DNA of 12,865 nt, from NCBI GenBank assembly GCA_016930515.1, contig JAFGGO010000018.1:1-12865 (forward strand), given 5' to 3'. Source of the DNA: Promethearchaeota archaeon (lineage in GTDB: Archaea; Asgardarchaeota; Lokiarchaeia; Sigyniarchaeales; SOKP01). The notes under the pieces were generated by a model. It had not been told where the DNA came from and made no database searches. It saw nothing but the letters and a program-made list of their open reading frames with translations. Positions within the stretch are counted from its first letter, which is position 1. Every line of letters begins with the position of its first letter. The position numbers were made by a program, and so were the translations under genes. This document shows, in pieces, positions 1 to 12,865 of the stretch.

Positions 1-3000
1 CTTTTTTTGTATAATATCGCTTTTTAATGGAAAAAAACGAAACGATAGATATCACACTAATGCCAGCACAAAGAATAATAATATCGAAACTAAATATTAC
101 TTCTTCATCTTTAGATGCATCTGGTTTTACAAAAACATCTATCCAATTTGAAGATCGATTACCGTACTGGTTAAATGCTATAACTTGAAAGAAATACATG
201 CCGTATGTGAGATTAGTAACTTCTTGTTCTTGTACGATCATGCCCCCTTGAATTTCTTTAATTTTCCACGATTCATTAACATAATATCGCATGTAAATTG
301 AATAATTATTAGCTCTTAAAGAATTACTCCAATAAATATTTATATTTCCATTAAGATCAGGATTATCCGCATCGCTATAAAGCCAAAATGTTCCTGGATA
401 AACATCATTTATCGTTACCAAAATTGTATCTGGAATTCCACTTATCATATATCCATTTTGATATTCGATAGTATACGCAAAGATTCCAGGAATCGTTCGA
501 TTGATGGGGACATTAAGGATCGTTCCGTTCGTCCAAGCGGTCCAATCTATCCAGGTATATATCTTCCCGTTCGTGTCGTTGGCGAGCACCCGATATTCTC
601 CAGCCATAAGGGTATCCATGAGAACCCAATCGAGCGTTTCCGTACCAATATTATATGTAGTTACATCCCCAGAACTCAATACCATTGGAACGTTACATAC
701 AGTTATTAAAACGGTATTTGGAATCCCATTTATCATGTTTCCATCTCTATATTCGATGGTATACGAAAAAACGCCTATGGCCGTTCGATTGATGGGAACA
801 TTGAGGATCGTTCCGTTTGTCCAAGCAGTCCAATCTATCCAGGTATAGATAGCTCCAGATGTGTTATTTGCGAGCACACGATACTCTCCTGGTATGTGAT
901 TATCCATGAGCACCCACCCGATGGTTTCCGTGCCAATGTTTGATGTGATCACATCTCCAGGACTTAATACCGTTGGGACATCGTTTACCGTTACCACGAT
1001 AGTATCAGGAATACCACTTACCATGTATCCATCTCGATATTCGATTGTATAGGTAAAAACACCTAGAGCCGTTCGATTTATGGGGACATTAAGGTTTATT
1101 CCGCTTGTCCAAGGAGTCCAATCAATCCAAGTATAGATAGCTCCAGATGTGTCGTTTGCGAGCACGCGATATTCTCCAGGAAAAAGATCGTCTGTAAGAA
1201 ACCATCCGATGGTTTCCGTGCCAATGTTTGATGTGATCAAGTCACCAGGACTTACTGCCGTTGGGGCATCGTTTACCGTTATCACGACTGTGTCTGGAGT
1301 CCCGCTTATCGAGTATCCATCTCGATGTTCGATGGTATACTCAAACACTCCAGAAGTTATTCGATTTATAGGGACATTTAGGTTCGTTCCGCTTGTCCAA
1401 GGAGTCCAATCAATCCAAGTATAGATAGCTCCAGAAGTGTCATTTGCGAGCACGCGATATTCTCCGGGAAAAAGATCGTCTGTAAGAATCCATCCAATGG
1501 TTTCTGTTCCCGTGGTTGTCGTGAAGATGTCATCTGGGTGATTTACTATCGGAGGATCGTTTACTGTAACCACGACCGTGTCTGAAGTTCCGTTTATCAA
1601 ACAACCGTCTCGATATTCAATGGTATACGCAAACACTCCAGGGACTATACGATTTATGGGGACATTGAGATTCATCCCGCTTGTCCAAGGAGTCCAATCA
1701 ATCCAAGTATAGATAGCTCCAGATGTGTCGTTAGCAAGCACGCGATATTGCCCGGGAATAAGATCATCCGTAAGAATCCATCCAATGGTTTCTGTTCCCG
1801 TGGTCGTCGTGAGAAAATCACTTGGGTGATTTACTGTCGGAATCTCGTGAGTTATAATCTTTTGGGCGTAAATGTTGTAAAGACCTCCATCAAGATGTGC
1901 ATCAAGCCATGTAACGATCGCACCACCGTGATCGTCAGATAATAATTGAACCGACATTTGAGCTCTTGAAGAGTCATTGGCAAGGAGTCTTCCATTAGTA
2001 GTCCATTGAGTAGTTCCCGAAGCGCTTATCTGCTGTGCATACACTTCCGATTCTCCATTTCTCTTATCTGTCCACGCAACAAACGCCCCTCCATTCCCGT
2101 CATTGATAATCGATGGGTAATTTTGATAGCTCGTTTCCGTGCAAACTGCCAATCCATTGGAAGTCCATTGTGAAACACCATTTGAATTTACTTTTTGTAC
2201 ATATATATCAAGATTATCTGTTATAGGGCTCCTATAATCATGCCACGCAAGTAAGGCACCTCCAGAGCCATCGCTCACCATTGAACTAAGCCATTGTGCC
2301 CTCGTTGCCGTGGTAATGGCAACACCGTTTGTAGTCCATCGAATTGTTCCACTCGTATCGACTCTTTGGGCATAAATGTCGTAATAAGAATCTGGTGATA
2401 AAAATCTATTGTCGTACCAAGCGATAATGGCACCTCCTCCTCCATCTGAGACAACAGAAACATCAAATTGAGCATCTGCGGCATTACTAATGGCAAGACC
2501 ATTAGAATTCCACAGAGTCGTTCCGTTAGAATCTATTTTCTGCGCGTAAATGTCCCACTCGTAGGAAGCTGATCTATCGTCTTGCCACGCTATGATCGCT
2601 CCTCCCGCTCCGTCGCTAATCAAGTCGGGATATCTTTGACTGTTTGATGCGGTACAGATCGCTGTTCCGTTAACATTCCATAGAATCATACCATTTGAGT
2701 CTATTTTTTGGGCATAAACATCGTAATTCGTGCTTTCATACCATGTCAAGATAGCTCCTCCCGTTCCATCAGAAACTATTTTTTCACCTATATATTGGTT
2801 TCCAGCAACAGTACAAACAGGCACACCATTCGGAGTCCATTGGATATCCCCGTTGGCGTTTATTCTTTGAGCGTAAATATCGTAATTATAATTTCTATAG
2901 TCCCCCCAAGCAATAATTGCTCCTCCCTCACCATCGCTAACGATAGACGGGGCGTATTGCTTCTCTATTGCCGTGCAGATCGGAATTCCGTCTATCGTCC

Positions 3001-3346
3001 ATTGAACAACTCCATCTGAGCTTACTCGTTGAGCATAGATGTCCTCGTCAGAATTCCGTTCATCCACCCATGCAAAAATGACTCCTCCAGTCCCATCACT
3101 CACTAAAGCGACTGAATATTGATCACGCCATTGAGTACAGATTGCTAATCCTTTGGATTCTCCCCATAATAAAGTTTCAGATGTTGATAAAATGTTATTT
3201 TCGGATTGATTTGTAATATCCGTGATCATTGATTCGTTTTCAAGCGTAGAAATCATTGTCAAGAAAAAAACTGCAAAAAATAAATAAAGTAGGCGCTTTT
3301 TTGAATGATTTTTTCTACTTGTTTTGTTTTGATATTTTTTAAACAT
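1..3346 (-). CDS. Large cell-surface (adhesin/S-layer-like) protein, >=1115 aa, 3' end outside the window: signal peptide + 8 beta-propeller-type repeats + 5 Ig-like repeats + FN3-like domain + C-terminal TM anchor (Loki-CTERM-like)
   Basis: Hand translation of the minus strand from ATG at 3346 (MFKKYQNKTSRKNHSKKRLLYLFFAVFFLTM...) stays open to position 2 (...DEEVIFSFDIIILCAGISVISIVSFFSIKKRYYTKK). Absent from the ORF track because no stop codon lies in the window. The frame is also open upstream of 3346, so the start is inferred from the basic+hydrophobic signal peptide. Confidence 0.92.
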   Translation of the reverse strand, partial: MFKKYQNKTSRKNHSKKRLLYLFFAVFFLTMISTLENESMITDITNQSENNILSTSETLLWGESKGLAICTQWRDQYSVALVSDGTGGVIFAWVDERNSDEDIYAQRVSSDGVVQWTIDGIPICTAIEKQYAPSIVSDGEGGAIIAWGDYRNYNYDIYAQRINANGDIQWTPNGVPVCTVAGNQYIGEKIVSDGTGGAILTWYESTNYDVYAQKIDSNGMILWNVNGTAICTASNSQRYPDLISDGAGGAIIAWQDDRSASYEWDIYAQKIDSNGTTLWNSNGLAISNAADAQFDVSVVSDGGGGAIIAWYDNRFLSPDSYYDIYAQRVDTSGTIRWTTNGVAITTATRAQWLSSMVSDGSGGALLAWHDYRSPITDNLDIYVQKVNSNGVSQWTSNGLAVCTETSYQNYPSIINDGNGGAFVAWTDKRNGESEVYAQQISASGTTQWTTNGRLLANDSSRAQMSVQLLSDDHGGAIVTWLDAHLDGGLYNIYAQKIITHEIPTVNHPSDFLTTTTGTETIGWILTDDLIPGQYRVLANDTSGAIYTWIDWTPWTSGMNLNVPINRIVPGVFAYTIEYRDGCLINGTSDTVVVTVNDPPIVNHPDDIFTTTTGTETIGWILTDDLFPGEYRVLANDTSGAIYTWIDWTPWTSGTNLNVPINRITSGVFEYTIEHRDGYSISGTPDTVVITVNDAPTAVSPGDLITSNIGTETIGWFLTDDLFPGEYRVLANDTSGAIYTWIDWTPWTSGINLNVPINRTALGVFTYTIEYRDGYMVSGIPDTIVVTVNDVPTVLSPGDVITSNIGTETIGWVLMDNHIPGEYRVLANNTSGAIYTWIDWTAWTNGTILNVPINRTAIGVFSYTIEYRDGNMINGIPNTVLITVCNVPMVLSSGDVTTYNIGTETLDWVLMDTLMAGEYRVLANDTNGKIYTWIDWTAWTNGTILNVPINRTIPGIFAYTIEYQNGYMISGIPDTILVTINDVYPGTFWLYSDADNPDLNGNINIYWSNSLRANNYSIYMRYYVNESWKIKEIQGGMIVQEQEVTNLTYGMYFFQVIAFNQYGNRSSNWIDVFVKPDASKDEEVIFSFDIIILCAGISVISIVSFFSIKKRYYTKK
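401..1840 (-). repeat. Five tandem 288-bp (96-aa) Ig-like domain repeats
   Basis: Marker gtccaag recurs at 531, 819, 1107, 1395 and 1683 (exact 288-bp period). Units are 1553-1840, 1265-1552, 977-1264, 689-976 and 401-688. Shared protein core: GTET(I/L)xW...G(E/Q)YRVLANxTxGxIYTWIDWTxWTxG..LNVPINR...GxFxYTIE. Confidence 0.95.
1853..3151 (-). repeat. Eight ~52-58-aa intragenic protein repeats, probable 8-bladed beta-propeller
   Basis: Consensus NGxx(I/V)CT-x4-Q-x5-(I/V)SDGxGGAI(I/L)AWxDxR-x(3-8)-DIYAQ(R/K)(I/V)xxxG-x3-W occurs 8 times (SDGTGG, SDGEGG, SDGTGG, SDGAGG, SDGGGG, SDGSGG, NDGNGG, SDDHGG). The fold is inferred. Confidence 0.85.
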
Positions 3347-3531
3347 TTTTGTTCTACTTTTATCTTCGTTCAAAAATCTATTTTGTAACGAGTATTTAAT
3401 GTTCAATTTAAATCCGTTTGGCAGAAATGTGGAATATTTTTTATAAAGGAAAAAAAGTTCAGTTTCGTGCCAGATCATTTTTTATAATAAGAATCTTTCA
3501 AAAAATTAATGAACTAAAAGTGTAAATCTAA

Positions 3532-4545
3532 ATGAAACTTAAAACCCTAAAATTAATCGCAACAATTCTTCTTGTTATTCTTGTTTTGAATGCAATTAAC
3601 GGTTTTTTAATTATAAATAACGATCCTAATCTTAAGGAATTACGAACATCTGCTGATGACGATGGAGATGGATTCGAAAACGAAGTAGAAATTAACTTAG
3701 GAACAGATCCTCTCAATCAATGGAGTTATCCAAAACCCGAATTGAATTTTTCCCATATAAATTTCTCAAATAATCTCTTGTCCATAAAAATTATCAACCA
3801 AGGCACTTGGAGGGCTCAAAACATCATTGTTTTAATAGAAATACCTTCATTGATTCTCATATTATATAATAATTCAGATCATCCTCATAATTTAGATGTT
3901 GACGAAGAATTTCAAGTAAATGTTGATCTAATTGATTACGATTTTTATTTATTACCAGGAATTAACTATAATATCAATATTGATATAGATCCCGATAATA
4001 CTATAAATGAAACAATAGAAGACAATAATTTAATCATTCTAACAGATATTAGATACAACTTTATTCAAAACCAACCAGCCAATTATTCTATTATAATAAT
4101 AATTTCAATTATAATAGCATTCGCCACATCTTTATCTATTGGTATGGTTTATGCAATAAAAAAGAAAAAAAAGGCTCGAACTTTATTAAATTACCAACTT
4201 GGTGATAATAGAAATCTGGAATCTCCGTTTCAAGGTATTAATTTTCAGAATGCAGATTTAAATGAAAAAAAACATAAATCCTCTGCTGATAATAACACAA
4301 ATATAACAGACTTCGATCTAACAAGGGAACAAAATTTCATAAACAATACTGAACAAGAAACCGAAGAAACAGAAAAGGAAATCTCCGTGGAAAAACCACA
4401 ATTTGTTTGCGTGGTTCACCGTGGAGAGATTTTTGGGAGTGTATACATCTGTCCTAATTGTCAAACCATTTACTGTGAAAAATGCGTATCAACTTTAAAA
4501 GTAAAAGGAGAAAAGTGCTGGTCCTGTAAAAAAGATTTTCAATGA
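3532..4545 (+). CDS. Single-pass membrane protein: signal anchor, TSP3-like Ca-binding repeat, CARDB/Ig-like ectodomain, TM helix, cytoplasmic RING-like Zn finger
   Basis: Hydrophobic N-terminus; DDDGDGFENEVEINLGTDP; CARDB-like PEL...IINQG...IDPDNTINETIEDNN; TM YSIIIIISIIIAFATSLSIGMVYAI followed by KKKKK; C-terminal CxxH-x10-CxxC-x4-CxxC-x10-CxxC. Confidence 0.85.
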   Translation: MKLKTLKLIATILLVILVLNAINGFLIINNDPNLKELRTSADDDGDGFENEVEINLGTDPLNQWSYPKPELNFSHINFSNNLLSIKIINQGTWRAQNIIVLIEIPSLILILYNNSDHPHNLDVDEEFQVNVDLIDYDFYLLPGINYNINIDIDPDNTINETIEDNNLIILTDIRYNFIQNQPANYSIIIIISIIIAFATSLSIGMVYAIKKKKKARTLLNYQLGDNRNLESPFQGINFQNADLNEKKHKSSADNNTNITDFDLTREQNFINNTEQETEETEKEISVEKPQFVCVVHRGEIFGSVYICPNCQTIYCEKCVSTLKVKGEKCWSCKKDFQ

Positions 4546-4736
4546 TTAATGCTCTAAATATAAGATGAATACCAAGAAAGTCTTTATAATATAAAAAAAC
4601 CTTTATTGCGATAAATTAATTTTCTCTAGAATCTTCTCGAGGAAATAATTTTTGATTATATTATTTTGGGCTTATTTTTTACTTAAAATTAATTAAAAAA
4701 ATATAAATTAAATCGTTCTTCCTTTTTTTTTCGAAG

Positions 4737-5069
4737 TTAATCGATTATTGCCGCGTTTAAAAGTTGTTTCAGGTCTTTAAGGATCTCGTTTGGGTTTACT
4801 CCTTTTTCTTCCATCGTTAGAGCGTCTTCTGCGAGCATAAACGCAAGATCGAGAGTATTTTTTGATGCTTTTTCTAAGAATTCTCCCATGATAAACTCAG
4901 GAGCATATTTTAACATACCACAGCCCTTTCTTGTTAATTTCCATCTATGGTCGTTAACTTGGTCGATTAGCCCCATTTGTTTGAGGAGGTCCAAGACATC
5001 TTCTAAATTATATTTATTCTTTGCTTTAGACCTTAGATTAATAATAGTTCTATCTAAAAATTTTACCAC
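4737..5069 (-). CDS. Hypothetical protein with a winged-helix-like N-terminal half
   Basis: 110-aa ORF with GTG start. LDLLKQMGLI...WKLTRKG resembles the recognition helix and wing of archaeal wHTH proteins. Confidence 0.6.
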   Translation of the reverse strand: MVKFLDRTIINLRSKAKNKYNLEDVLDLLKQMGLIDQVNDHRWKLTRKGCGMLKYAPEFIMGEFLEKASKNTLDLAFMLAEDALTMEEKGVNPNEILKDLKQLLNAAIID

Positions 5070-5188
5070 CTCGATTTTGTTCTTATATTATATTCTCAAG
5101 ATATTATTTAAGTCGGAGGTCAGGGCAAATTTAATAAATTAAAAAAATTTTCTCAAGATGAAAAATAATTGATAATATTATTAAAATT

Positions 5189-5731
5189 TCACAATATCGA
5201 TGCAAAATTTTCAGAAAATTTTTGTATTTGATTTACATCACGAAGATCGTATGATATATCTTCGATTTTCTCCCATCCATCGTCAATTAAACCTTCTTTC
5301 ATCATTTTTTTAGCCATATTACTCAGTAAAGAAGTCTCTGAAAAATCGTAAATTGCGCCAAAAGCATCACACAAGTCATAAGTTACTCCGATTTTTGACA
5401 TTTTTGATTTTATGTATTTTTCTATTGCTTCGTTCACGTCTTCTTTCTTGCAGGCGGTACCACAACTGATAAAAAACCCAAATTTGAAATTCCGATTATT
5501 AAATATTCGTTTGTGTTTCTTAACGAATTTTTTAATTCTTTTCGTCCACATCGAAATTTTTATTCCCGTTCCGATAAGAACACCGTCATATCCTTCAACA
5601 GATGGTTCCATGTCTTTGATGTTGACTAAATTTACTTCTAGATTTTTCGAGGATAACGCATCCGAAATCATTTTAGAAGTGTTTTCTGTCGTTCCATAAC
5701 GGCTCCCAAATACGATAAGCACTTTTTTCAT
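5189..5731 (-). CDS. Flavodoxin-domain protein (HemG / Flavodoxin_5-like)
   Basis: N-terminal KVLIVFGSRYGTTE (FMN phosphate-binding loop), YDGVLIGTGI, FFISCG, and C-terminal DLRDVNQIQKFS typical of HemG-like flavodoxins. Confidence 0.85.
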   Translation of the reverse strand: MKKVLIVFGSRYGTTENTSKMISDALSSKNLEVNLVNIKDMEPSVEGYDGVLIGTGIKISMWTKRIKKFVKKHKRIFNNRNFKFGFFISCGTACKKEDVNEAIEKYIKSKMSKIGVTYDLCDAFGAIYDFSETSLLSNMAKKMMKEGLIDDGWEKIEDISYDLRDVNQIQKFSENFASIL

Positions 5732-5970
5732 GATTTTTTTTTAAACAACTATCATTTAAATAATTATTCTAATTTAAATTTTAAATTAATTATTTAGAAA
5801 TCATTGTAATAATAAGCAATGAAATTAATTTTTGATTATTTATTCTTCTAACAAGGAGAAAACGATAAAAAATAATATTATAAGCGAAGAAACTTTTAAT
5901 TAGATTGATTAAATGGAATTTAAGCCCTAAGGTGTGCGTTTTAAATAAATTATCATCTTATTATTAGCTA

Positions 5971-7119
5971 ATGTTAAAAATGACCAATTATCAAAAAATT
6001 CTCGAAGAAAAAACAGAATTATTATGCAGGGGACTTTTTCTTGATGATAGTTTGATGGATCATTATAAATTGCAAGGAATCGAGATAGATTTTGGCCGCA
6101 AGGGAGGCGCAGGACCATCAGGTGGACGCTATTTTATTTTAGAAGACGACGAAACCGTTGTAAATGTGGCCTTATGGAAAGATAAAAACCGTTCTGCTCT
6201 TCTATTGGGCGAATGTGAAGAAGGCTATTTTTCCGTTTTCGATGAAAAATCGAAAAAAGAATATAATAAGATCAAACTTGTCAAGAATCCTTTATATTAC
6301 GATGCACGATATAAAACTTCTGACGGGATTGAAATGAAAAAAATAGCTTTAGTACACGGAGTCGATTGCCTTGCAACTACAATATATCAGAAATGTGCTC
6401 ATTGGGCTTGTGGTGAAGCCTGCAAGTTTTGTGGGATACAAATCTCTCTAGCTTCAGGAGCTACAACTCCTGAAAAAAATCCAGAACAATTATGTGAAGT
6501 GATATCTATTGCTAAAAGAGAAAATCGATGTTCTCACGTAACACTCACTTCTGGAACCGAAGGTTCTCCCGATAAAGGTGCTAATAGATATATTTCAATG
6601 TTAAAGGGAATTCGAAAAAGATTTAAGGATTTACCGCTCCATGTTCAAATAGAACCCATTAGTCGCACATTACTTCAAGATTTGAAAGATTCTGGTGCAG
6701 ATACCATTGGAATTCACATCGAAATAATTGACGAACTTATCAGGAAAATAGTTACTCCTGGAAAATCAAAAATTCCCTTAAAGAAGTTTAAGGAAAGCTG
6801 GAGCGAAGCTGTTGAAATATTTGGAAAAAATCAAGTGGAAACATTCTTACTTACGGGTTTTGGGGAATCAAGGTTTGATTTTCTTAAAAATGTTGAAGAT
6901 ATCATTATTACAGGAGTCATTCCCTTTATTTTACCTGTTAGATCTGTACCAGGAAGTAAAGATTTGATGCCAACTACTAATTATCTCGCTTTACTTGAAA
7001 TTTATACTAAAGTTGCTCAATTAATGAAAGATTATGGAATTAATCCCTTAGAAAACAAGGCGGGTTGTGTCAAATGTGGTGGGTGTAGTGCAATAAAAGA
7101 AGCTTATAAAGCCATATAA
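5971..7119 (+). CDS. Radical SAM protein, MSMEG_0568-like family
   Basis: GRKGGAGPS, TSDGI..KIALVHGVDCLATTIYQKC...CKFC, TLTSGT, HVQIEP, TPGK, GFGE and C-terminal KAGCVKCGGCS match recalled motifs of this family. The start could be the ATG at 5980. Confidence 0.8.
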   Translation: MLKMTNYQKILEEKTELLCRGLFLDDSLMDHYKLQGIEIDFGRKGGAGPSGGRYFILEDDETVVNVALWKDKNRSALLLGECEEGYFSVFDEKSKKEYNKIKLVKNPLYYDARYKTSDGIEMKKIALVHGVDCLATTIYQKCAHWACGEACKFCGIQISLASGATTPEKNPEQLCEVISIAKRENRCSHVTLTSGTEGSPDKGANRYISMLKGIRKRFKDLPLHVQIEPISRTLLQDLKDSGADTIGIHIEIIDELIRKIVTPGKSKIPLKKFKESWSEAVEIFGKNQVETFLLTGFGESRFDFLKNVEDIIITGVIPFILPVRSVPGSKDLMPTTNYLALLEIYTKVAQLMKDYGINPLENKAGCVKCGGCSAIKEAYKAI

Positions 7120-7187
7120 AGCTATTATAACAAATTTTTAAAAAGATGTTCCTTTCCCCTAATTACACTGATTTAAAATGATATGGA

Positions 7188-7754
7188 ATGGGAAATTATT
7201 TAATGCGTTTAGAACGGGGATTAATTCATTATTATTACGGGAAAGGGAAAGGTAAGACTTCCACTCTTATAGGAACGCTTATCCGAGCACATGGACACGG
7301 GTTAAAGACGCTTTTAATTCAATTTTTAAAACTTCATTCCGAATCTGAAAAAAAAAATTTAGGATATTTTATGGGAGAGATTCATTTTTTAAGAAAAATC
7401 ATTCCTGTTAAACAATTTGGGTCTGGAGCTTTTGTAATGCCAAATCAACCCCTTTCAGAAAATGATCTAAAAATTGCACAAAAAGGATTTAAATTCGTTC
7501 AAGAAGCATTTACTTCTCAAAAATATGATGTAATCGCCATTGACGAAATCGTAGATGCAATAGCATTGAATTTAGTAGATTTAAAAGAATTTATTAACTT
7601 ATTAAATTATAAACCTGAAAATCTTGAAGTAATTTTCAGCGGTTATAATTATATCCCTCAGCTTGCAGAAATAGCTGATTATATTTCGAATATTGATATG
7701 AAAAAGCATCCTTATTATTCTGGAATTGATGCCCGAAAAGGAATAGAATATTAA
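7188..7754 (+). CDS. cobA: ATP:cob(I)alamin / cob(I)yrinic acid a,c-diamide adenosyltransferase (CobA/BtuR/CobO family)
   Basis: GLIHYYYGKGKGKTS (family P-loop), RAHGHG..IQFLK, YDVIAIDE, EVIFSG, ADYIS and KHPYYSGIDARKGIEY. The start may be the ATG at 7203. Confidence 0.92.
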   Translation: MGNYLMRLERGLIHYYYGKGKGKTSTLIGTLIRAHGHGLKTLLIQFLKLHSESEKKNLGYFMGEIHFLRKIIPVKQFGSGAFVMPNQPLSENDLKIAQKGFKFVQEAFTSQKYDVIAIDEIVDAIALNLVDLKEFINLLNYKPENLEVIFSGYNYIPQLAEIADYISNIDMKKHPYYSGIDARKGIEY

Positions 7755-7815
7755 ACACATTATTAATTCAATTTTATTCTTATAATAAATGAATACATCT
7801 CTCTTTAAGCTAATC

Positions 7816-7854
7816 CGAAAATTTTTAATATTATTGGTATTTAGGTTATATAAC
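7816..7854 (+). promoter_or_regulatory. Candidate archaeal promoter(s) for the leader/mutase operon
   Basis: BRE+TATA-like cgaaaaTTTTTAAT at 7816-7829, and a second TATA-like TTATATAA within the palindrome gttatataac (7845-7854). The AT-rich background lowers specificity. Confidence 0.4.
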
Positions 7855-7870
7855 GAATATTTTAATATTT

Positions 7871-7996
7871 ATGAATAACATTAAGATGGAAAATATGGTC
7901 GACAAGACAAAACTTTTTAGCACCATCACGGTTCCAAGCTTAGTGTTATTATTACCCGTACTTTTATTATTAGTACGCGTAGTATTATTATTATAA
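7871..7996 (+). CDS. Putative Leu/Val-rich leader peptide (uORF), 33-41 aa
   Basis: MNNIKMENMVDKTKLFSTITVPSLVLLLPVLLLLVRVVLLL*. In-frame ATGs at 7871, 7886 and 7895; TAA at 7994-7996. The last 18 codons are 11 Leu (10 TTA), 5 Val, 1 Pro and 1 Arg. Confidence 0.7.
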   Translation: MNNIKMENMVDKTKLFSTITVPSLVLLLPVLLLLVRVVLLL

Positions 7997-8043
7997 AATA
8001 CTACCAATAGACTTCTGCTTCTCGGGGGTTTCATTGGTGGTAT
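7957..8043 (+). promoter_or_regulatory. Attenuator-like alternative RNA hairpins in the 5' leader of the mutase operon
   Basis: H1: CGTACT 7957-7962 / AGTACG 7972-7977. H2: GTAGTATT 7979-7986 / AATACTAC 7997-8004. H3: ATACTACCAAT-AGACTTCTG 7998-8017 / CGGGGGTTT-C-ATTGGTGGTAT 8023-8043 (20 bp, 5 G-U pairs, one bulge). H2 and H3 share 7998-8004. Confidence 0.65.
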
Positions 8044-8107
8044 GAAAGTAAACACGTTAAATCAAAAAAGATAAGGAAAAGAAAAAAAAGGAAAAAAACT
8101 GAGTAAC

Positions 8108-9742
8108 ATGACCATAAGCCAAGAAAATAAATCAAGAGATTCGATAATTCTCCAAAAAAACTCACAAAGAAGAAATTTATCGAATATCGAAATTAAAGAA
8201 TTATATACTCCCGAAGACATTAAAGATTTCGATTATAATAGAGATTTGGGTGCCCCAGGAGAGTTTCCTTTTACTAGGGGCGTATATCCTTCAATGTATC
8301 GTGGAAGACTTTGGACAATGCGTCAATTTGCAGGGTTGGGAACAGCGGAACAAACTAACGAGAGATATAAGTTTTTAATTGAACATGGACAAACGGGATT
8401 GAGCGTGGCTTTCAGCTTACATACGATATATGGTTACGAAGCTGAAGATCCTCATTCTCTAGGCGAAATAGGAAAAGAAGGTGTCGCTATTGACACGCTA
8501 AAGGATATGGAAATTTTATTCGATGGAATAGACCTGTCAAAAATTAGCACGAGCATGACCATAAACGCTCCTGCAGCGATCCTTTTAGCGATGTATATTG
8601 TAGTAGCAGAAAAGCAAGGGCATTCTCCAGATCAAATACGTGGAACTATTCAGAATGATATTCTTAAGGAATATATTGCTCAAAAATCGTGGATATTCCC
8701 TCCTGAACCCTCTATGCGCTTAATTATTGATACTATAGAATATTGCACGAAATTCGTTCCTCAATGGTATACGATAAGTATTAGTGGATACCACATTAGA
8801 GAAGCAGGATCGACGGCCGTACAAGAACTTGCCTTTACTCTTGCTGATGGGTTTGCTTACATCGAGGAAGCAATGAAAAGAGGTTTGGATGTTGACGATT
8901 TTGCTCCAAGATTATCCTTCTTTTTCAATTCACATAATAATTTTTTCGAAGAAATATGCAAATATAGGGCTGCTCGGCGTATTTGGGCAAAAAGATTGAA
9001 AAATCAATATGGTGCTACTAAGCCTGAATCAATGAGGATGAGATTCCATACCCAAACCGCAGGTGTTTCCTTGACTGCTCAAGAACCAGAAAATAATATA
9101 ATAAGAGTTGCCTTGCAAGGAATGGCTGCCGTATTGGGAGGAACGCAATCCTTACATACGAATTCATTCGACGAAGCGCTCTGTCTGCCTACCGAAAAAG
9201 CCGCTAAAATTGCGTTAAGAACCCAACAGATCATTGCTCACGAGACGGGTGTTACTGATACAATCGATCCTTTAGCGGGGTCCTATTATGTTGAATGGTT
9301 GACAAAAAAAATGGAAGAAGAAGCCGAAAAATATTTTGAAAAAATCGAAGCTTTAGGAGGAGTTATTCCAGCGATTCGAGAGAATTTCTTTCAAAAAGAA
9401 ATCGCTAACGCGTCCTATCAGTTCCAACAGGAAGTGGAAAATAAAGATTATACTATCGTAGGAGTTAACCAATTCCAACAAAAAGAGACTTGCAAGACAG
9501 AAATTCTAAAAATCGATGAGGATGTGGCAAAAATCCAAATACAAAAAGTAAAAGAAATTAAAAAAGTCCGAGATAACGATAAAATGGCACAAAAACTGAA
9601 CGCCTTGAAAAAAGCAGCGGAGAGTACTGAAAATTTAATGCCTTATATCATTGATGCAGTAAGCGAATATGCATCGGTGGGAGAAATAATAGCCACGCTA
9701 AAAGAAGTGTTTGGCATTTACAAGGAGGATTCGATCTTTTAA
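8108..9742 (+). CDS. B12-dependent acyl-CoA mutase, large (TIM-barrel) subunit; isobutyryl-CoA-mutase-type specificity residues
   Basis: PGEFPFTRG.YP.MY, WTMRQFAG, GQTGLSVAF, STSMTINA, GTIQNDILKE, ISISGYH, HTQT, GGTQSLHTN, ALRTQQII, DPLAGSYY. F74 and Q192 occupy the positions of MCM Tyr89 and Arg207. There is no fused B12 domain. Confidence 0.95.
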   Translation: MTISQENKSRDSIILQKNSQRRNLSNIEIKELYTPEDIKDFDYNRDLGAPGEFPFTRGVYPSMYRGRLWTMRQFAGLGTAEQTNERYKFLIEHGQTGLSVAFSLHTIYGYEAEDPHSLGEIGKEGVAIDTLKDMEILFDGIDLSKISTSMTINAPAAILLAMYIVVAEKQGHSPDQIRGTIQNDILKEYIAQKSWIFPPEPSMRLIIDTIEYCTKFVPQWYTISISGYHIREAGSTAVQELAFTLADGFAYIEEAMKRGLDVDDFAPRLSFFFNSHNNFFEEICKYRAARRIWAKRLKNQYGATKPESMRMRFHTQTAGVSLTAQEPENNIIRVALQGMAAVLGGTQSLHTNSFDEALCLPTEKAAKIALRTQQIIAHETGVTDTIDPLAGSYYVEWLTKKMEEEAEKYFEKIEALGGVIPAIRENFFQKEIANASYQFQQEVENKDYTIVGVNQFQQKETCKTEILKIDEDVAKIQIQKVKEIKKVRDNDKMAQKLNALKKAAESTENLMPYIIDAVSEYASVGEIIATLKEVFGIYKEDSIF

Positions 9743-9746
9743 GCAT

Positions 9747-9752
9747 AGGAGG
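9747..9752 (+). promoter_or_regulatory. Shine-Dalgarno site for the small subunit gene
   Basis: AGGAGG 8 nt upstream of the ATG at 9761. Confidence 0.65.
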
Positions 9753-9760
9753 AATTTAAC

Positions 9761-10162
9761 ATGACAGAACAAAGAATAATAAAAGTATTGGTTTGCAAGC
9801 CAGGATTGGATGGTCATGATAGGGGAGCAAAAGTAATTGCACGAGCACTTCGAGACGCGGGTATGGAAGTTATTTACACTGGATTGCATCAAACACCTGA
9901 TGACATAGTTAATACGGTAATTCAAGAAGATCCTGACGCAGTAATGTTAAGTCTTTTAAGCGGTTCTCACAATGCTCTCTGTCCCGTCATTATGGAAAAA
10001 TTAAAAGCTCAAGGCATCGATGATGTGCTAGTATCCGTAGGAGGCATCATTCCGGAAGAAGACAAGATATCATTAGAAGAATTGGGCTTCAAGGGTTTTC
10101 ACGGACCAGGAACAGAATTAAAAGAAATTGTTGAGTTTGTAAAAAAAAATTTAAAGAGATAG
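9761..10162 (+). CDS. Acyl-CoA mutase small, cobalamin-binding subunit (IcmB / MCM C-terminal domain family)
   Basis: KPGLDGHDRGAKVIARALRDAGMEVIYTG (DxHxxG base-off/His-on motif), SLLSGSH, VGGIIP, GPGT. Confidence 0.96.
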   Translation: MTEQRIIKVLVCKPGLDGHDRGAKVIARALRDAGMEVIYTGLHQTPDDIVNTVIQEDPDAVMLSLLSGSHNALCPVIMEKLKAQGIDDVLVSVGGIIPEEDKISLEELGFKGFHGPGTELKEIVEFVKKNLKR

Positions 10163-10168
10163 AACAAA

Positions 10169-11170
10169 ATGGATACCACCACTCTAATAACGCTTCTTAA
10201 AGAAGGAAACACGCGCGCAGCTGCCCGTTTGATAACGATTGTTGAGAATAATATCAAGGATTCAGAGATGATCATTAAATCCATTTACAAAGATACGGGA
10301 AAAGCTTATATTTTAGGAATTACGGGTGCTCCAGGGGCGGGAAAAAGTACTTTTATCTCAACTTTAACCAAAAAATTTGTTAATCAGGGTAAAAAAGTAG
10401 GGATTATATGCGTTGATCCCACCTCTCCGTTGACGGGAGGCGCGTTATTGGGAGATAGGATACGAATGAAAGATAATTTCTCCCTTGAAAATGTATTCAT
10501 TCGAAGCATGGCAAACAGGGGTCAATTAGGTGGATTAGCTCGAGCAACCGAAGATGTGATAAAAATCCTTGATGTCTACGGGTGTGATATCATTATTGTT
10601 GAAACTGTAGGAGTTGGGCAATCTGAAATCGATATTTTTCGGTCAGCACATACCGTTATTGTTTTATTAGTACCAGGAACGGGTGACGATATCCAAGCTA
10701 TTAAGGCAGGATTAATGGAAATTACGGATATATTTGCTGTCAATAAGATGGATCTACCTGGTGCGGATCGTAAGGTAGCGGATATAATCCAAATGCTTGA
10801 ATTAAATACTAATTTTCGCTATGAATCAGACAATCCGAATGCCCGGAACTTTAAATTGCAAGAGTGGGTTCCAGAAATTATAAAGGTTAATTCTATTACT
10901 GGAAAAAACTTTGTTGAACTTTCTAATATAATCCAGAAACACGAGCATTTTCTCAGAAAAAATGGTGTTTTCCATAGTTACATGATAAATAGGATAAAAG
11001 CGGAAACGATGCAAATACTCAAACACAAAATTGTGAAAAAAATAGAAGGGCTTCTCAATTCAAACAAATTTATCGAAGACCACGAATCACAAGTTTTAGA
11101 TAAATCCTTGGATCCCTATTCAATGGCAGATCTCATCATTAAGATGGTAGGGTTGGATCAAAAAAAATAA
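10169..11170 (+). CDS. meaB: Mutase-associated G-protein chaperone MeaB (MMAA/ArgK family)
   Basis: GITGAPGAGKST, VDPTSP..GGALLGDRIRM, FIRS...RG.LGGL, VETVGVGQSE, GDDIQAIKAG, NKMD. Confidence 0.96.
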   Translation: MDTTTLITLLKEGNTRAAARLITIVENNIKDSEMIIKSIYKDTGKAYILGITGAPGAGKSTFISTLTKKFVNQGKKVGIICVDPTSPLTGGALLGDRIRMKDNFSLENVFIRSMANRGQLGGLARATEDVIKILDVYGCDIIIVETVGVGQSEIDIFRSAHTVIVLLVPGTGDDIQAIKAGLMEITDIFAVNKMDLPGADRKVADIIQMLELNTNFRYESDNPNARNFKLQEWVPEIIKVNSITGKNFVELSNIIQKHEHFLRKNGVFHSYMINRIKAETMQILKHKIVKKIEGLLNSNKFIEDHESQVLDKSLDPYSMADLIIKMVGLDQKK

Positions 11171-11259
11171 TACATTTTCTTATTTTTTTATTACTCTTTT
11201 AATGTATTATATTATTATTCAAATTATGAGAATCAAATTAATACGAAAAGATTAATTTA

Positions 11260-12030
11260 ATGAGACTAATTGTCATAGGTGGAGGAAAATTTGGAAAAAA
11301 GGCTTTAGAATTTGGAAGAAAGAAAAATGCTCAATCGATTCTAATAGACATTGATCCTAGCTGTATCGCTAGTAAAATGATTAATAGGCAATTTATCTCT
11401 CAAGAAGAACTTCTTTCGAGCCTTAATGAGATTAATCCAGGAGAAATATATTTCTTAATTCACGAAAAACCAAATTTAGAAAAATTATTATACGCTTTTC
11501 ATCCAGAATACATTATTCCAGTAATCCCTATTCACTTGATTGCTTCCATGATTGTTAGAAAATTGGATTTATATGGAATCAATTTGTTTTTCGATGATAA
11601 ATCCTCGCAAAGATTTGTAAGTAAAGCAAATCAAAATTTGATCTTGAATAGCGATTTTAAAAATGGTGTTGTGCTCTTATCATACGCAAAAAATGGAGAA
11701 ATTTGTCCTGATGATTGTGCCGGGCCTTTACATTATTGTCCTAATTTCAAGCGCGAAAAACCCATTACCATCACGCAACACATAAAAGAGATAATATTAG
11801 ATTTTAAAGACAATGAGCGCGAAAATAAAAATTCTTATTTCTTTCCCTTTATCGTTGAGAGCCAGCAGCTTAGATCCGGATTAGGTGGAATAAAGGGAAC
11901 TGATCTTAAATGCTTATTTGATGAAATTGATATGAACCTTGAAAAAATAAAATACAATAAATGCGAAATTATCGTTGCAACTACATGTAATTGCCACGGA
12001 ATAATAAATTTCTTTTATAAAAAGAATTAA
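11260..12030 (+). CDS. Uncharacterised NAD(P)-binding (Rossmann N-terminus) protein with Cys/His clusters
   Basis: LIVIGGGKFG...LIDID dinucleotide-binding fingerprint; CPDDC-x4-HYC and ATTCNCHG. Confidence 0.75.
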   Translation: MRLIVIGGGKFGKKALEFGRKKNAQSILIDIDPSCIASKMINRQFISQEELLSSLNEINPGEIYFLIHEKPNLEKLLYAFHPEYIIPVIPIHLIASMIVRKLDLYGINLFFDDKSSQRFVSKANQNLILNSDFKNGVVLLSYAKNGEICPDDCAGPLHYCPNFKREKPITITQHIKEIILDFKDNERENKNSYFFPFIVESQQLRSGLGGIKGTDLKCLFDEIDMNLEKIKYNKCEIIVATTCNCHGIINFFYKKN

Positions 12031-12053
12031 AATAGGAAAAGATTCTTTATATT

Positions 12054-12497
12054 TTACGATTCAAACAATTTTATCCGAAGATCGTATTGCTTGGGGCTGT
12101 TTGGACAATTTAATTCGCAGCAGGTTGGAAGGTACGAATATACTTCAAATTTTCCAATAGGAACTAGTAAATACATTAACGAGTGAATTAAAGAGCAAGT
12201 ACTATTAATTTCTTCTAATGGGCCATCACAAAGAGTGTTTTTGTGTATTTCTTTGTCGACAAATAAACATACACCCTCGTTGGGATCAAATCCAAATAAA
12301 TATTGAAATTGAGGGATAATAGGATATTTGTTCGTTTCTACCTTTCGTTCGTATTTTATATGTATTTTATTGAAAGATAGGGTGAATTTAAGAGCCTTAT
12401 ATGAATCATTCGATAAATCTTGATCTGTTATCTCGTGGATCGTGAAATCTTGTGATACTGCTTTATCAATCAAATGAATTAGTTTATTTTCTAACAT
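12054..12497 (-). CDS. Hypothetical protein
   Basis: 147-aa ATG-started ORF filling the space between neighbours; C-terminal PTCCELNCP. No family recognised. Confidence 0.65.
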   Translation of the reverse strand: MLENKLIHLIDKAVSQDFTIHEITDQDLSNDSYKALKFTLSFNKIHIKYERKVETNKYPIIPQFQYLFGFDPNEGVCLFVDKEIHKNTLCDGPLEEINSTCSLIHSLMYLLVPIGKFEVYSYLPTCCELNCPNSPKQYDLRIKLFES

Positions 12498-12598
12498 GGG
12501 TTCTAATTTATAATTCTCAAGTCAATTATTTAATTTTTATCACATTAAAAAGATGGTTTGACAAAAAAATTACCCTTCTCATATAATTGAGCCCAAAA

Positions 12599-12853
12599 TT
12601 ATTTGATTTTATTGGGATCAATCCATTCACAATAAATCTCAGTTATATTTAAAGTTCCTATTTTCGAACATTTTGAACATTTTTCATCGTAAAGGTTTTT
12701 AAATGTATAATCTCCAGGAGTAAATAGGCGCTCGTATTTAGCCCTGCAAGAATTACATTTGAGAACCGTTGTAACACGCTCAACGAGTTTTTTTTTCCGT
12801 TCTAATACTTCTCCAATATCTGGTAATGGAGGAAATTGCGGCTCTTCGCTCAT
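12599..12853 (-). CDS. Small archaeal Zn-ribbon protein
   Basis: TVLKCNSC...RLFTPGDYTFK....CSKC...ITEIY: two CxxC pairs flanking an RxFxxGDY motif recalled from small archaeal Zn-ribbon hypotheticals. Confidence 0.75.
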   Translation of the reverse strand: MSEEPQFPPLPDIGEVLERKKKLVERVTTVLKCNSCRAKYERLFTPGDYTFKNLYDEKCSKCSKIGTLNITEIYCEWIDPNKIK

Positions 12854-12865
12854 AAAATTTCTCGA

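Follow-up and report, generated by a model that had tools for sequence, protein, structure and literature searches.

We examined a 12,865-nt window from a Promethearchaeota archaeon (assembly GCA_016930515.1, contig JAFGGO010000018.1, positions 1 to 12,865), in which a short upstream open reading frame (uORF) lies in a 353-nt intergenic region between a gene for a corrinoid adenosyltransferase and an operon for a B12-dependent acyl-CoA mutase (Table 1). The uORF encodes 41 amino acids (MNNIKMENMVDKTKLFSTITVPSLVLLLPVLLLLVRVVLLL) and its last 18 codons comprise 16 Leu or Val codons, one Pro and one Arg, including three TTA-TTA-TTA runs, with the stop ending 111 nt before the mutase ATG. Of the other two plus-strand frames, the one that was translated is closed by stops across the tract. 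The observation made in the sequence-only reading is therefore confirmed.

Table 1 Features of the leader region and the mutase operon, with the main support for each.
Positions	Strand	Feature	Support
7188..7754	+	ATP:corrinoid adenosyltransferase (CobA/BtuR type), bordering the intergenic region	Pfam PF02572, E 5e-46; not kept next to the leader in all relatives (relatives G004 and G005 have other genes upstream)
7814..7833	+	Conserved BRE/TATA-like box (CCGAAAATTTTTAATATTAT); inferred promoter of the leader transcript, with an inferred transcription start near 7850	Block nearly invariant in 5 of 6 aligned relatives; an AAANTTTTWA box lies 166-194 nt before the uORF stop in 25 of 30 loci
7871..7996	+	Leader ORF; 41 codons from the first ATG, or 33 from the ATG at 7895 that is conserved in the genus; variable polar N-part and Leu/Val tail running up to the stop	ORF listing; all four mutase-type leaders of the genus are 33 aa from the conserved ATG; frame kept in all 37 copies examined
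7874..7891	+	Conserved box (AATAAYATWAAGNTGGRA) just before the conserved start codon; probably the ribosome-binding region of the uORF (inferred)	Conserved in nearly all copies; a similar AAGTTGGAA box precedes the start of the oxidoreductase gene, and GAGATGGAA precedes the mutase start in G005
7940..7993	+	Candidate control-codon tract LVLLLPVLLLLVRVVLLL (16 of 18 Leu/Val: TTA x9, GTA x4, GTG, CTT); can fold into a local hairpin (H1)	H1 appears in the minimum free energy fold
7998..8043	+	Hairpin H2 (about 20 bp, -21.9 kcal/mol), starting 1 nt after the stop codon; outer stem UACUACCAAU/AUUGGUGGUA, corresponding to the family consensus GCAACCAAUAAAA...UUUUUAUUGGUUGC	RNA folding; covariation (see text)
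8057..8070	+	Conserved A-rich box (TTAAATCAAAAAAG) between hairpin and gene; possibly a proximal promoter element, a ribosome standby site or a regulator site	Conserved in mutase-type and oxidoreductase-type copies
8108..9742	+	Acyl-CoA mutase large subunit (MM_CoA_mutase), isobutyryl-CoA-mutase-like	PF01642, E 1.5e-225; active-site motifs (see text)
9761..10162	+	B12-binding small subunit of the mutase	PF02310 and TIGR00640
10169..11170	+	MeaB-type G-protein chaperone of the mutase	PF03308; TIGR00750 at 337 bits, above its cut-off

We next asked whether the Leu/Val tract could be a chance open frame. In a scan of all six frames of the 4.0-Mb genome, it was the single best 18-residue window for Leu plus Val, with only four windows reaching 14 or more. 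One of these, containing LLLVVRVVVL on contig C31, lies in an alternative frame inside a 362-aa gene that looks like ftsZ by eye and is attributed to chance. The intergenic region is AT-rich (26-28% G+C) and TTA is not a rare codon in this genome, being the commonest Leu codon (35%), while GTA makes up 26% of Val codons. However, Tandem Repeats Finder reported a 21-nt (7-codon) internal repeat at 7946-7994 and no period-3 microsatellite.

The sequence-only reading had named conservation of a Leu/Val-rich uORF in relatives as a test of its proposal, and this came out positive. Among same-genus genomes the intergenic DNA is 70-80% identical, with synonymous changes in the leader (CGC/CGT, GTA/GTT/GTG and TTA/TTG/CTT) and indels that are in frame. 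Two covariance models of the tail plus hairpin found the element in 27-30 of 135-151 genomes (about 30 of 135), all within one Promethearchaeota family and spanning at least eight genera, with no hits in 19 genomes of other families of the order. Every copy keeps a 28-34-codon frame with a variable N-part, a Leu/Val/Ile tail and a covarying hairpin at the stop, and every copy precedes either the mutase or the gamma subunit of a POR/VOR-type 2-oxoacid:ferredoxin oxidoreductase, except that one copy runs off its contig. Six genomes, including this one, have both, and here the oxidoreductase operon is unlinked to the mutase operon and lies on another contig (C126).

The tails show signatures of selection on the encoded residues or codons, not just on RNA. 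Across 36 distinct tails, Leu, Val and Ile account for 78% of the last 20 codons and 89% of the last 12, and differences between copies in the last 12 codons comprise 777 synonymous changes, 3021 Leu/Val/Ile interchanges and 1509 others. Codon position 2 is T in 81% of positions (entropy 0.78, against 1.54 and 1.22 at positions 1 and 3). Tail composition is L 39%, V 22%, I 17%, F 3%, A 0.6% and G 0.7%, compared with I 26%, L 21%, V 14%, F 12%, A 6% and G 5% in membrane-like segments of this genome. Ile substitutions are common, but Ile is itself a branched-chain amino acid, whereas the Phe and Ala expected if only hydrophobicity were conserved are depleted. Codon usage is extreme, with GTA representing 92% and GTT 2% of Val codons and TTA 75% of Leu codons, against 26%, 38% and 35% genome-wide. 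Only 12 tRNAs were found in the assembly by aragorn, too few to judge the isoacceptor set for TTA and GTA.

Hairpin H2 is the best-supported conserved structure. In an alignment of 30 sequences, which was fitted to the covariance model, 92.6% of cells are paired (27-53% when partners are slid), the covariation score is 0.314 (against about 0.06) and six pairs changed on both sides. Many U-G pairs work only on the plus-strand RNA which, together with variable loop length and covariation in the inner helix, rules out a DNA palindrome acting as an operator. The hairpin is an RNA-level feature, which implies that transcription passes through it. H2 starts between -3 and +6 nt from the stop in all but a few copies. 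In contrast, H1 is only weakly better than codon-shuffled controls across the family (mean z -0.74; 4 of 35 below -2), and we place no weight on it. An exact-pattern scan of genome contigs for the H2 consensus was unspecific, returning mostly unrelated bacterial palindromes and at least one Promethearchaeota hit.

We then looked for the anatomy of a classical leader-peptide attenuator of the ilvL, ivbL, leuL or trpL type. The enrichment in cognate codons and its conservation alongside a variable N-part both fit this class, but an intrinsic terminator and a conserved antiterminator pairing were not found. A bacterial promoter and terminator scan, which is not designed for archaea, found nothing, with no terminator-like site in 7700-8200. 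The hairpin of the window is followed by AUGAAAG and contains only a T3 run, whereas 28 of 37 family copies have T5-T8 inside the 3' arm, not after the stem. An 8-bp competing pairing (7978-7985 with 7997-8004) exists in the window and in one relative, G003 (z -2.1 and -1.4), but across 37 copies the duplex energy is no better than shuffled (mean z 0.0), which argues against a three-hairpin model. Sequestration of the downstream ribosome-binding site (ermCL type) is also not supported, because the mutase SD-like AAGGA lies about 50 nt beyond the end of the hairpin at 8043, and in the oxidoreductase copies the AAGTTGG box lies 25-40 nt after the hairpin. An Rfam scan of 7600-8300 at E up to 10 gave only chance-level hits (no family at E below 1), and a Pfam scan of six leader peptides at E up to 10 gave no leader family, only weak hits to membrane-protein segments.

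Supporting the idea of ribosome-based sensing, the same genome contains other amino-acid-matched uORFs. Trp-rich uORFs precede trpD and trpE, a Leu-run uORF precedes 2-isopropylmalate synthase (leuA), an Ile-run uORF precedes citramalate synthase (cimA) and a Val-run uORF precedes an acyl-CoA dehydrogenase. The Leu and Val leaders also have a strong hairpin (-24 and -18 kcal/mol) 2-3 nt after the stop, while that of the Ile leader is weak (-6.5 kcal/mol) and the Trp leaders are built differently.

The downstream enzymes were typed from sequence alone. The mutase carries RQFAG and YIAQK where solved methylmalonyl-CoA mutases have RQYAG and FMVRN, placing Phe and Gln at the two substrate-carboxylate positions where methylmalonyl-CoA mutase has Tyr and Arg, a pair equated with isobutyryl-CoA mutase on the basis of published work, and it lacks the Ile/Asp of 2-hydroxyisobutyryl-CoA mutase (the solved HCM has RQIAG, plus Asp where the window has Ala). 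For the oxidoreductase, the beta subunit scored 391 bits against the VOR-beta model and 387 against PorB, the delta subunit 109 against 104, and the alpha subunit 404 against PorA and 377 against VOR-alpha, with no subunit reaching a POR- or VOR-specific cut-off. In this 94%-complete genome ilvB, ilvC and ilvD were not found, while leuA, a leuB-like gene and two ilvE-like genes are present. Within the family, 7 of 32 genomes with the leader have ilvC, compared with 69 of 103 without it, and mutase loci without the leader lie in ilvC-positive genomes in 7 of 9 cases, compared with 1 of 6 for those with it. This association is confounded by shared ancestry, and a branched-chain auxotroph that gates catabolism would show the same link.

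Overall, we consider it likely that the uORF is a leader peptide that senses the charging of Leu-, Val- and Ile-tRNAs. In this model, the leader transcript starts at the conserved BRE/TATA box, and the time a ribosome needs to cross the last roughly 20 codons, nearly all of which use a single codon per residue (TTA, GTA or ATT), reports the charging of a few branched-chain tRNAs. Whether the ribosome is held back in the tract or sits at the end of the ORF would decide whether the hairpin can form and, in turn, whether transcription or expression continues into the mutase operon, with the sister copy on C126 doing the same for the oxidoreductase. More tentatively, we favor expression rising when charging falls, such that the two operons would work in the reverse direction, from butyryl-CoA to isobutyryl-CoA to 2-oxoisovalerate, feeding Val and Leu synthesis where the acetolactate route was not found. 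The analysis establishes conservation of the frame, the composition and codon bias of the tail, covariation of the hairpin, the link to two operons and the other matched leaders, whereas translation of the uORF, a transcript shared by leader and operon, the molecular switch, its sign and the enzyme activities are inferred. A survey of public sequencing runs listed no RNA run containing the locus and one DNA run, probably the source sample, and an AT-rich, TATA-like stretch between hairpin and gene could be a separate proximal promoter.

The interpretation in the sequence-only reading, that ribosome speed over Leu/Val codons gates a catabolic operon with inverted logic, is thus partly supported: sensing is credible, but Leu/Val should be Leu/Val/Ile, and neither the catabolic role nor the inverted logic is shown, a biosynthetic role with classical logic fitting at least as well. 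The Pfam and Rfam scans showed no homology to bacterial leader families.

The strongest alternative, which we regard as possible but rather doubtful, is the same sensor with this inverted sign. When Leu, Val and Ile are plentiful, a ribosome keeping pace with RNA polymerase would cover the 5' arm of the hairpin at the end of the ORF, so that the hairpin, with its U-tract in most copies, could not stop transcription and the catabolic operons would be on; when charging is low the ribosome would lag, the hairpin would form and scarce amino acids would be spared. The abutment of stop codon and hairpin is the geometry needed for such masking, and the tract is unusually long (18-20 codons, against 4-9 in the leuA, cimA, trp and acyl-CoA dehydrogenase leaders), as would suit a timer. 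A lineage without ilvBCD may be auxotrophic and need to protect its pool, lokiarchaeial relatives are known as amino-acid fermenters, and mutase, 2-oxoacid oxidoreductase and acyl-CoA dehydrogenase together form a known anaerobic valine/isobutyrate degradation route. However, the leuA leader and, less clearly, the cimA leader share the layout of control codons up to the stop followed by a hairpin and must switch on at starvation, making one mechanism with two signs less parsimonious. In addition, leuA and the leuB-like and ilvE-like genes need a source of 2-oxoisovalerate, and the hairpin of the window has no U-tract.

It is unlikely that the ORF encodes a small tail-anchored membrane peptide acting in trans, for example as a subunit or membrane tether, with its Leu/Val/Ile richness reflecting only the need for a hydrophobic helix and the hairpin as the 3' end or stabilizer of its transcript. 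The conserved length, the polar, often Lys/Arg-rich N-part, the C-part of about 20 hydrophobic residues, the promoter and RBS-like boxes, and a U-tract that could end a short transcript in most copies are all consistent with this view. However, Phe, Ala, Gly and Met are 4- to 10-fold rarer than in membrane-like segments of this genome, a polar Arg, Gln or His sits at a fixed place inside the supposed helix, and the extreme codon usage has no reason under this model. Moreover, the hydrophobic run always ends exactly at the stop next to a covarying hairpin, such a peptide has no evident business with two soluble enzyme systems, the genome carries matched uORFs before biosynthetic genes, and no Pfam family was found. 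Slightly less likely still, the functional element may be the RNA or a protein that binds it, with the hairpin and A-rich box forming a protein- or metabolite-responsive leader or a separate small RNA, and the frame maintained for another reason, such as keeping the leader RNA covered or unfolded, without sensing amino acids. The hairpin as the best-supported conserved structure, the conserved boxes at 7874-7891 and 8057-8070 that coding does not explain, and the possible proximal promoter favor this reading, but the absence of an Rfam match, the three-base periodicity, the restriction of substitutions to Leu/Val/Ile and the in-frame indels oppose it, and loop length variation and G-U pairs exclude a DNA palindrome bound by a dimer. 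A chance frame or TTA microsatellite is refuted by the conservation data.

Among known systems, the enterobacterial leaders ilvL of ilvGMEDA, ivbL of ilvBN and leuL of leuABCD likewise pack a short ORF with Leu/Val/Ile codons biased to particular codons, place an RNA hairpin close to its end and precede genes that handle the same amino acids, with several amino acids sensed at once in ilvL. Here, however, the host is an archaeon with a BRE/TATA promoter, the control codons run right up to a stop that touches the hairpin, and the operons encode a mutase and a ferredoxin oxidoreductase rather than ilv or leu genes. In pyrBI attenuation in E. coli, the position of the leading ribosome relative to one hairpin decides read-through without an antiterminator, which is the geometry needed for the inverted sign, but the signal is the UTP-dependent speed of the polymerase and the leader ORF runs through the terminator instead of stopping at its foot. 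Archaeal termination can depend on U-tracts and aCPSF1 (FttA) (Li et al. 2021, eLife, PMC8716108, cited in PMC10450193). The U5-U8 tract found 24-33 nt after the leader stop in most family copies is the sort of signal archaeal polymerases and aCPSF1 use, although it is base-paired within the 3' arm, where the hairpin could hide it as easily as help it, and no link between translation and this pathway at a leader was described in the library searched. Small single-pass membrane peptides of prokaryotes share the length and polar-hydrophobic layout but not the restricted composition, the near-single codon usage or the fixed position before two metabolic operons with a hairpin at the stop.

Leader-peptide sensing of tRNA charging is a textbook bacterial mechanism, and searches of open-access and preprint literature on archaeal or Asgard leader-peptide attenuation, the mutase in Lokiarchaeota and reductive carboxylation to valine found no relevant report, which does not prove that none exists. 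The comparative evidence for an archaeal example is strong and comes from the lineage closest to eukaryotes, with an anatomy that cannot work exactly as in bacteria, making possible a direct test of transcription-translation coupling as a regulatory device in archaea. The element also ties two poorly typed enzyme systems to Leu/Val/Ile status. In a more far-reaching scenario, which is possible but doubtful, members of this clade lacking a detectable IlvB/C/D pathway would make Val and Leu skeletons by running degradation backwards, from crotonyl-CoA to butyryl-CoA (acyl-CoA dehydrogenase/ETF), to isobutyryl-CoA (B12 mutase) and to 2-oxoisovalerate (ferredoxin oxidoreductase, by reductive carboxylation), with each step switched on by its own leader peptide when the cognate tRNAs run uncharged. 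This would be both the first archaeal ribosome-mediated attenuation system and a new regulated biosynthetic route. The set of matched Trp, Leu, Ile and Val leaders could be used to annotate amino-acid regulons in uncultured archaea.

The window is a whole contig (C61, 12.9 kb) and belongs to a 4.0-Mb genome of 35% G+C in 190 contigs that is 94% complete, and its closest mutase relatives are Promethearchaeota (Lokiarchaeia-like) MAGs. A 353-nt gap between a corrinoid adenosyltransferase gene and an acyl-CoA mutase operon holds a 41-aa ORF, and in this respect the sequence-only reading was confirmed exactly as it stood: the last 18 codons are 16 Leu/Val, with three runs of three TTA codons and four GTA codons, and the stop lies 111 nt before the mutase ATG. 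Two details need correcting, as TTA is not rare here but is the commonest Leu codon, and the tract contains a 21-nt, seven-codon internal repeat rather than a period-3 microsatellite. As a check against chance, we scanned all six frames of the genome, revealing this to be the single richest 18-residue window for Leu plus Val, with only four windows reaching 14. Coordinates of these and other features are collected below.

Coordinates of the leader region, its neighbours and related loci in the same genome (window coordinates unless a contig is named)
Feature	Location	Strand	Remarks
Very long ORF	2-3478	-	Over 1159 aa; runs off the contig end
Protein with bacterial TSP3 repeat	3532-4545	+	337 aa; neighbours the very long ORF
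Flavodoxin-domain gene	5189-5731	-	Divergent; next to the radical SAM gene
Radical SAM protein, MSMEG_0568 family	5971-7119	+	Below the family cut-off; upstream of the adenosyltransferase
Corrinoid adenosyltransferase gene	7188-7754		Upstream border of the gap
BRE/TATA-like box	7814-7833		Nearly invariant
Leader ORF (uORF)	7871-7996		41 aa
Conserved box, probable RBS	7874-7891
ATG shared by the genus	7895		Gives 33 codons
Pairing that competes with H2	7978-7985 with 7997-8004		Not conserved
Hairpin H2	7998-8043		Starts 1 nt after the stop; -21.9 kcal/mol
Mini-ORF at the 3' foot of H2	8042-8074	+	MKVNTLNQKR
Conserved A-rich box	8057-8070
Acyl-CoA mutase operon	8108-11170
Two ORFs after MeaB	11260-12030; 12054-12497	+; -	256 and 147 aa; no Pfam or NCBIfam match
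Second leader copy	C126:41855-41956		33 aa, ending FLVLLVVLIL
Second leader copy with oxidoreductase operon	C126:41855-45166 (locus L132:3356-6667)		Gamma-delta-alpha-beta gene order
Mini-ORF of the second copy	C126, about 42019-42054		MKNQKGKSWKN
Trp-run uORFs before trpD and trpE	C24:10732-10815; C34:18054-18134	-; +	Ending GWQWPWRWQ and TWFWVWRWHA
Leu-run, Ile-run and Val-run leaders	C134:20609-20740; C47:28117-28191; C122:19911-20009	-; +; -	Ending MLPELLLLL, GKIIIGIIII and SLVDVVVVVLL

We next examined conservation of the element. The intergenic DNA is 70-80% identical in three same-genus genomes and recognisable in another genus, and in all four same-genus loci the ORF is open, starts at a shared ATG and is 33 codons long, with differing N-parts and with tails that vary by synonymous and L/V/I-interchanging changes. 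A covariance model of the tail plus the following hairpin (R1, followed by R2, which was built from 30 hits) found the element in 27-30 of 135-151 genomes, with all hits in one family and in at least eight genera, and with none in the 19 genomes sampled from other families of the order. In all 37 copies examined, a 28-34-codon frame ends at the foot of the hairpin. Over the last 20 codons, position 2 is T in 81% of cases and its entropy is half that of positions 1 and 3, which is the signature of selection on encoded hydrophobic residues.

Every copy but one, which runs off its contig (locus L140), lies upstream of one of two genes: the mutase large subunit (the window and the relatives' genomes G003, G004, G005, G010 and G063/L003) or the gamma subunit of a four-subunit 2-oxoacid:ferredoxin oxidoreductase (all other copies). 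Six genomes have both, including this one, where the second copy lies on contig C126 and is followed by a hairpin (GCAACCAATAAAA...TTTTTATTGGTTGC) that contains U7. The mutase carries Phe and Gln at the two positions where solved methylmalonyl-CoA mutases have Tyr and Arg, and lacks the Ile/Asp of 2-hydroxyisobutyryl-CoA mutase, which in published work is the isobutyryl-CoA-mutase signature. The oxidoreductase scores equally as POR and as VOR, with tied NCBIfam scores. In several relatives, the radical SAM gene lies directly upstream of the mutase.

Within the leader region, the BRE/TATA-like box is found 166-194 nt before the uORF stop in 25 of 30 loci, and a second conserved box resembles the box before the oxidoreductase and mutase starts, so it is probably an RBS. 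Across 30 sequences, 92.6% of cells in hairpin H2 are paired, against 27-53% for slid partners, and the covariation score is 0.314 against about 0.06, although the alignment was fitted to the model. Six pairs changed on both sides, many U-G pairs work only in the + strand RNA and loop length varies. H2 is therefore an RNA structure and not a DNA operator, which means that transcription from upstream passes through it, although an AT-rich, TATA-like stretch after the hairpin could be a second promoter. In 28 of 37 copies the 3' arm contains a U5-U8 tract paired to an A-tract in the 5' arm, while the copy in the window has only U3, and a scan of 7700-8200 found no bacterial-type terminator. The mini-ORF that starts at the 3' foot of the hairpin, in the window and on C126, covers the conserved AAATCAAAAA box. 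In several relatives the equivalent frame runs on into the oxidoreductase gene, so the true start of that gene, or a second uORF, is uncertain; the difference on C126 is one A in a homopolymer.

To place the element in context, we scanned the same genome for intergenic uORFs whose C-termini are dominated by one amino acid. The only Trp-run uORFs with a gene behind them precede trpD and trpE, both exactly 143 nt upstream, and the trpE leader is followed by a T8 run about 50 nt after its stop. Ranking L/V/I-rich uORFs by the hairpin after their stop gave, in order, a Leu-run leader before 2-isopropylmalate synthase, the present leader, a Val-run leader before an AcrC/Bcd-like acyl-CoA dehydrogenase, the C126 copy and, after one further candidate before an unidentified gene, an Ile-run leader before citramalate synthase. 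The Leu and Val leaders also have a strong hairpin 2-3 nt after the stop, whereas that of the Ile leader is weak.

What the comparison shows to be conserved is a two-part device, consisting of a long control tract and one hairpin whose 5' arm lies within reach of a ribosome at the last codons or at the stop. No public RNA sequencing run contains the locus, and translation of the uORF, a transcript shared with the operon, the switch itself and its sign are all inferred from sequence. Two readings fit this device. In the first, expression would be on at starvation: a ribosome held early in the tract would leave the 5' arm free, so that H2 forms and buries the U-tract that would otherwise trigger archaeal termination, while a ribosome reaching the end of the ORF would block H2 and expose the U-tract. 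We lean towards this reading for three reasons. First, at least the leuA leader, and less clearly the cimA leader, share the layout of control codons up to the stop followed by a hairpin, and must be on at starvation. Second, ilvC, ilvD and ilvB (the acetolactate synthase large subunit) were not found in this 94%-complete genome, while leuA, a leuB-like gene and two ilvE-like genes are present, and 2-oxoisovalerate therefore needs a source. Third, within the family, 7 of 32 leader-bearing genomes have ilvC, against 69 of 103 others, and mutase loci without the leader lie in ilvC-positive genomes in 7 of 9 cases, against 1 of 6 for those with it; ilvC presence and the leader are largely mutually exclusive by genus. 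However, relatives are not independent, an auxotroph that gates catabolism would show the same pattern, and the hairpin in the window lacks the U-tract.

The strongest alternative is the opposite sign, as proposed in the sequence-only reading, with expression on when Leu and Val are plentiful; in this case a ribosome that keeps pace with the polymerase would prevent an inhibitory hairpin. The interpretation offered in the sequence-only reading is partly supported, in that sensing of amino acids by a leader peptide is credible but the inverted sign is not the one we favor. A small membrane peptide fits less well. The tails are 39% L, 22% V and 17% I, with 3% F, 0.6% A and 0.7% G, whereas the 530 most hydrophobic 20-residue segments of this genome's long ORFs have 12% F, 6% A and 5% G. 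Val is encoded by GTA in 92% of tail codons and by GTT in 2%, compared with 26% and 38% genome-wide, so this is not AT bias, and Leu is TTA in 75% of tail codons, compared with 35% genome-wide. A polar Arg/Gln/His sits at a fixed place inside the run, and the run always reaches the stop codon. These features fit a device read by the ribosome through a few tRNA species and fit a membrane helix poorly, although the polar N-part followed by a hydrophobic C-part keeps that alternative alive. The classical three-hairpin scheme is not supported, because the pairing that competes with H2 in the window is not conserved (mean z 0.0 over 37 copies) and the hairpin inside the tail is only weakly supported.

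In our interpretation, the element would work like the enterobacterial multivalent ilv/leu leaders but is not a member of those families, as there is no homology in Pfam and Rfam scans, no bacterial-type terminator and no conserved antiterminator, the promoter type is different and different genes would be controlled. Full-text searches of open-access and preprint literature found no archaeal leader-peptide attenuation. Because the two predicted enzymes are adjacent steps between 2-oxoisovalerate and butyryl-CoA, a shared Leu/Val/Ile-rich leader makes metabolic sense, and the amino-acid-matched leaders found elsewhere in the genome make ribosome-based amino-acid sensing in this organism credible.
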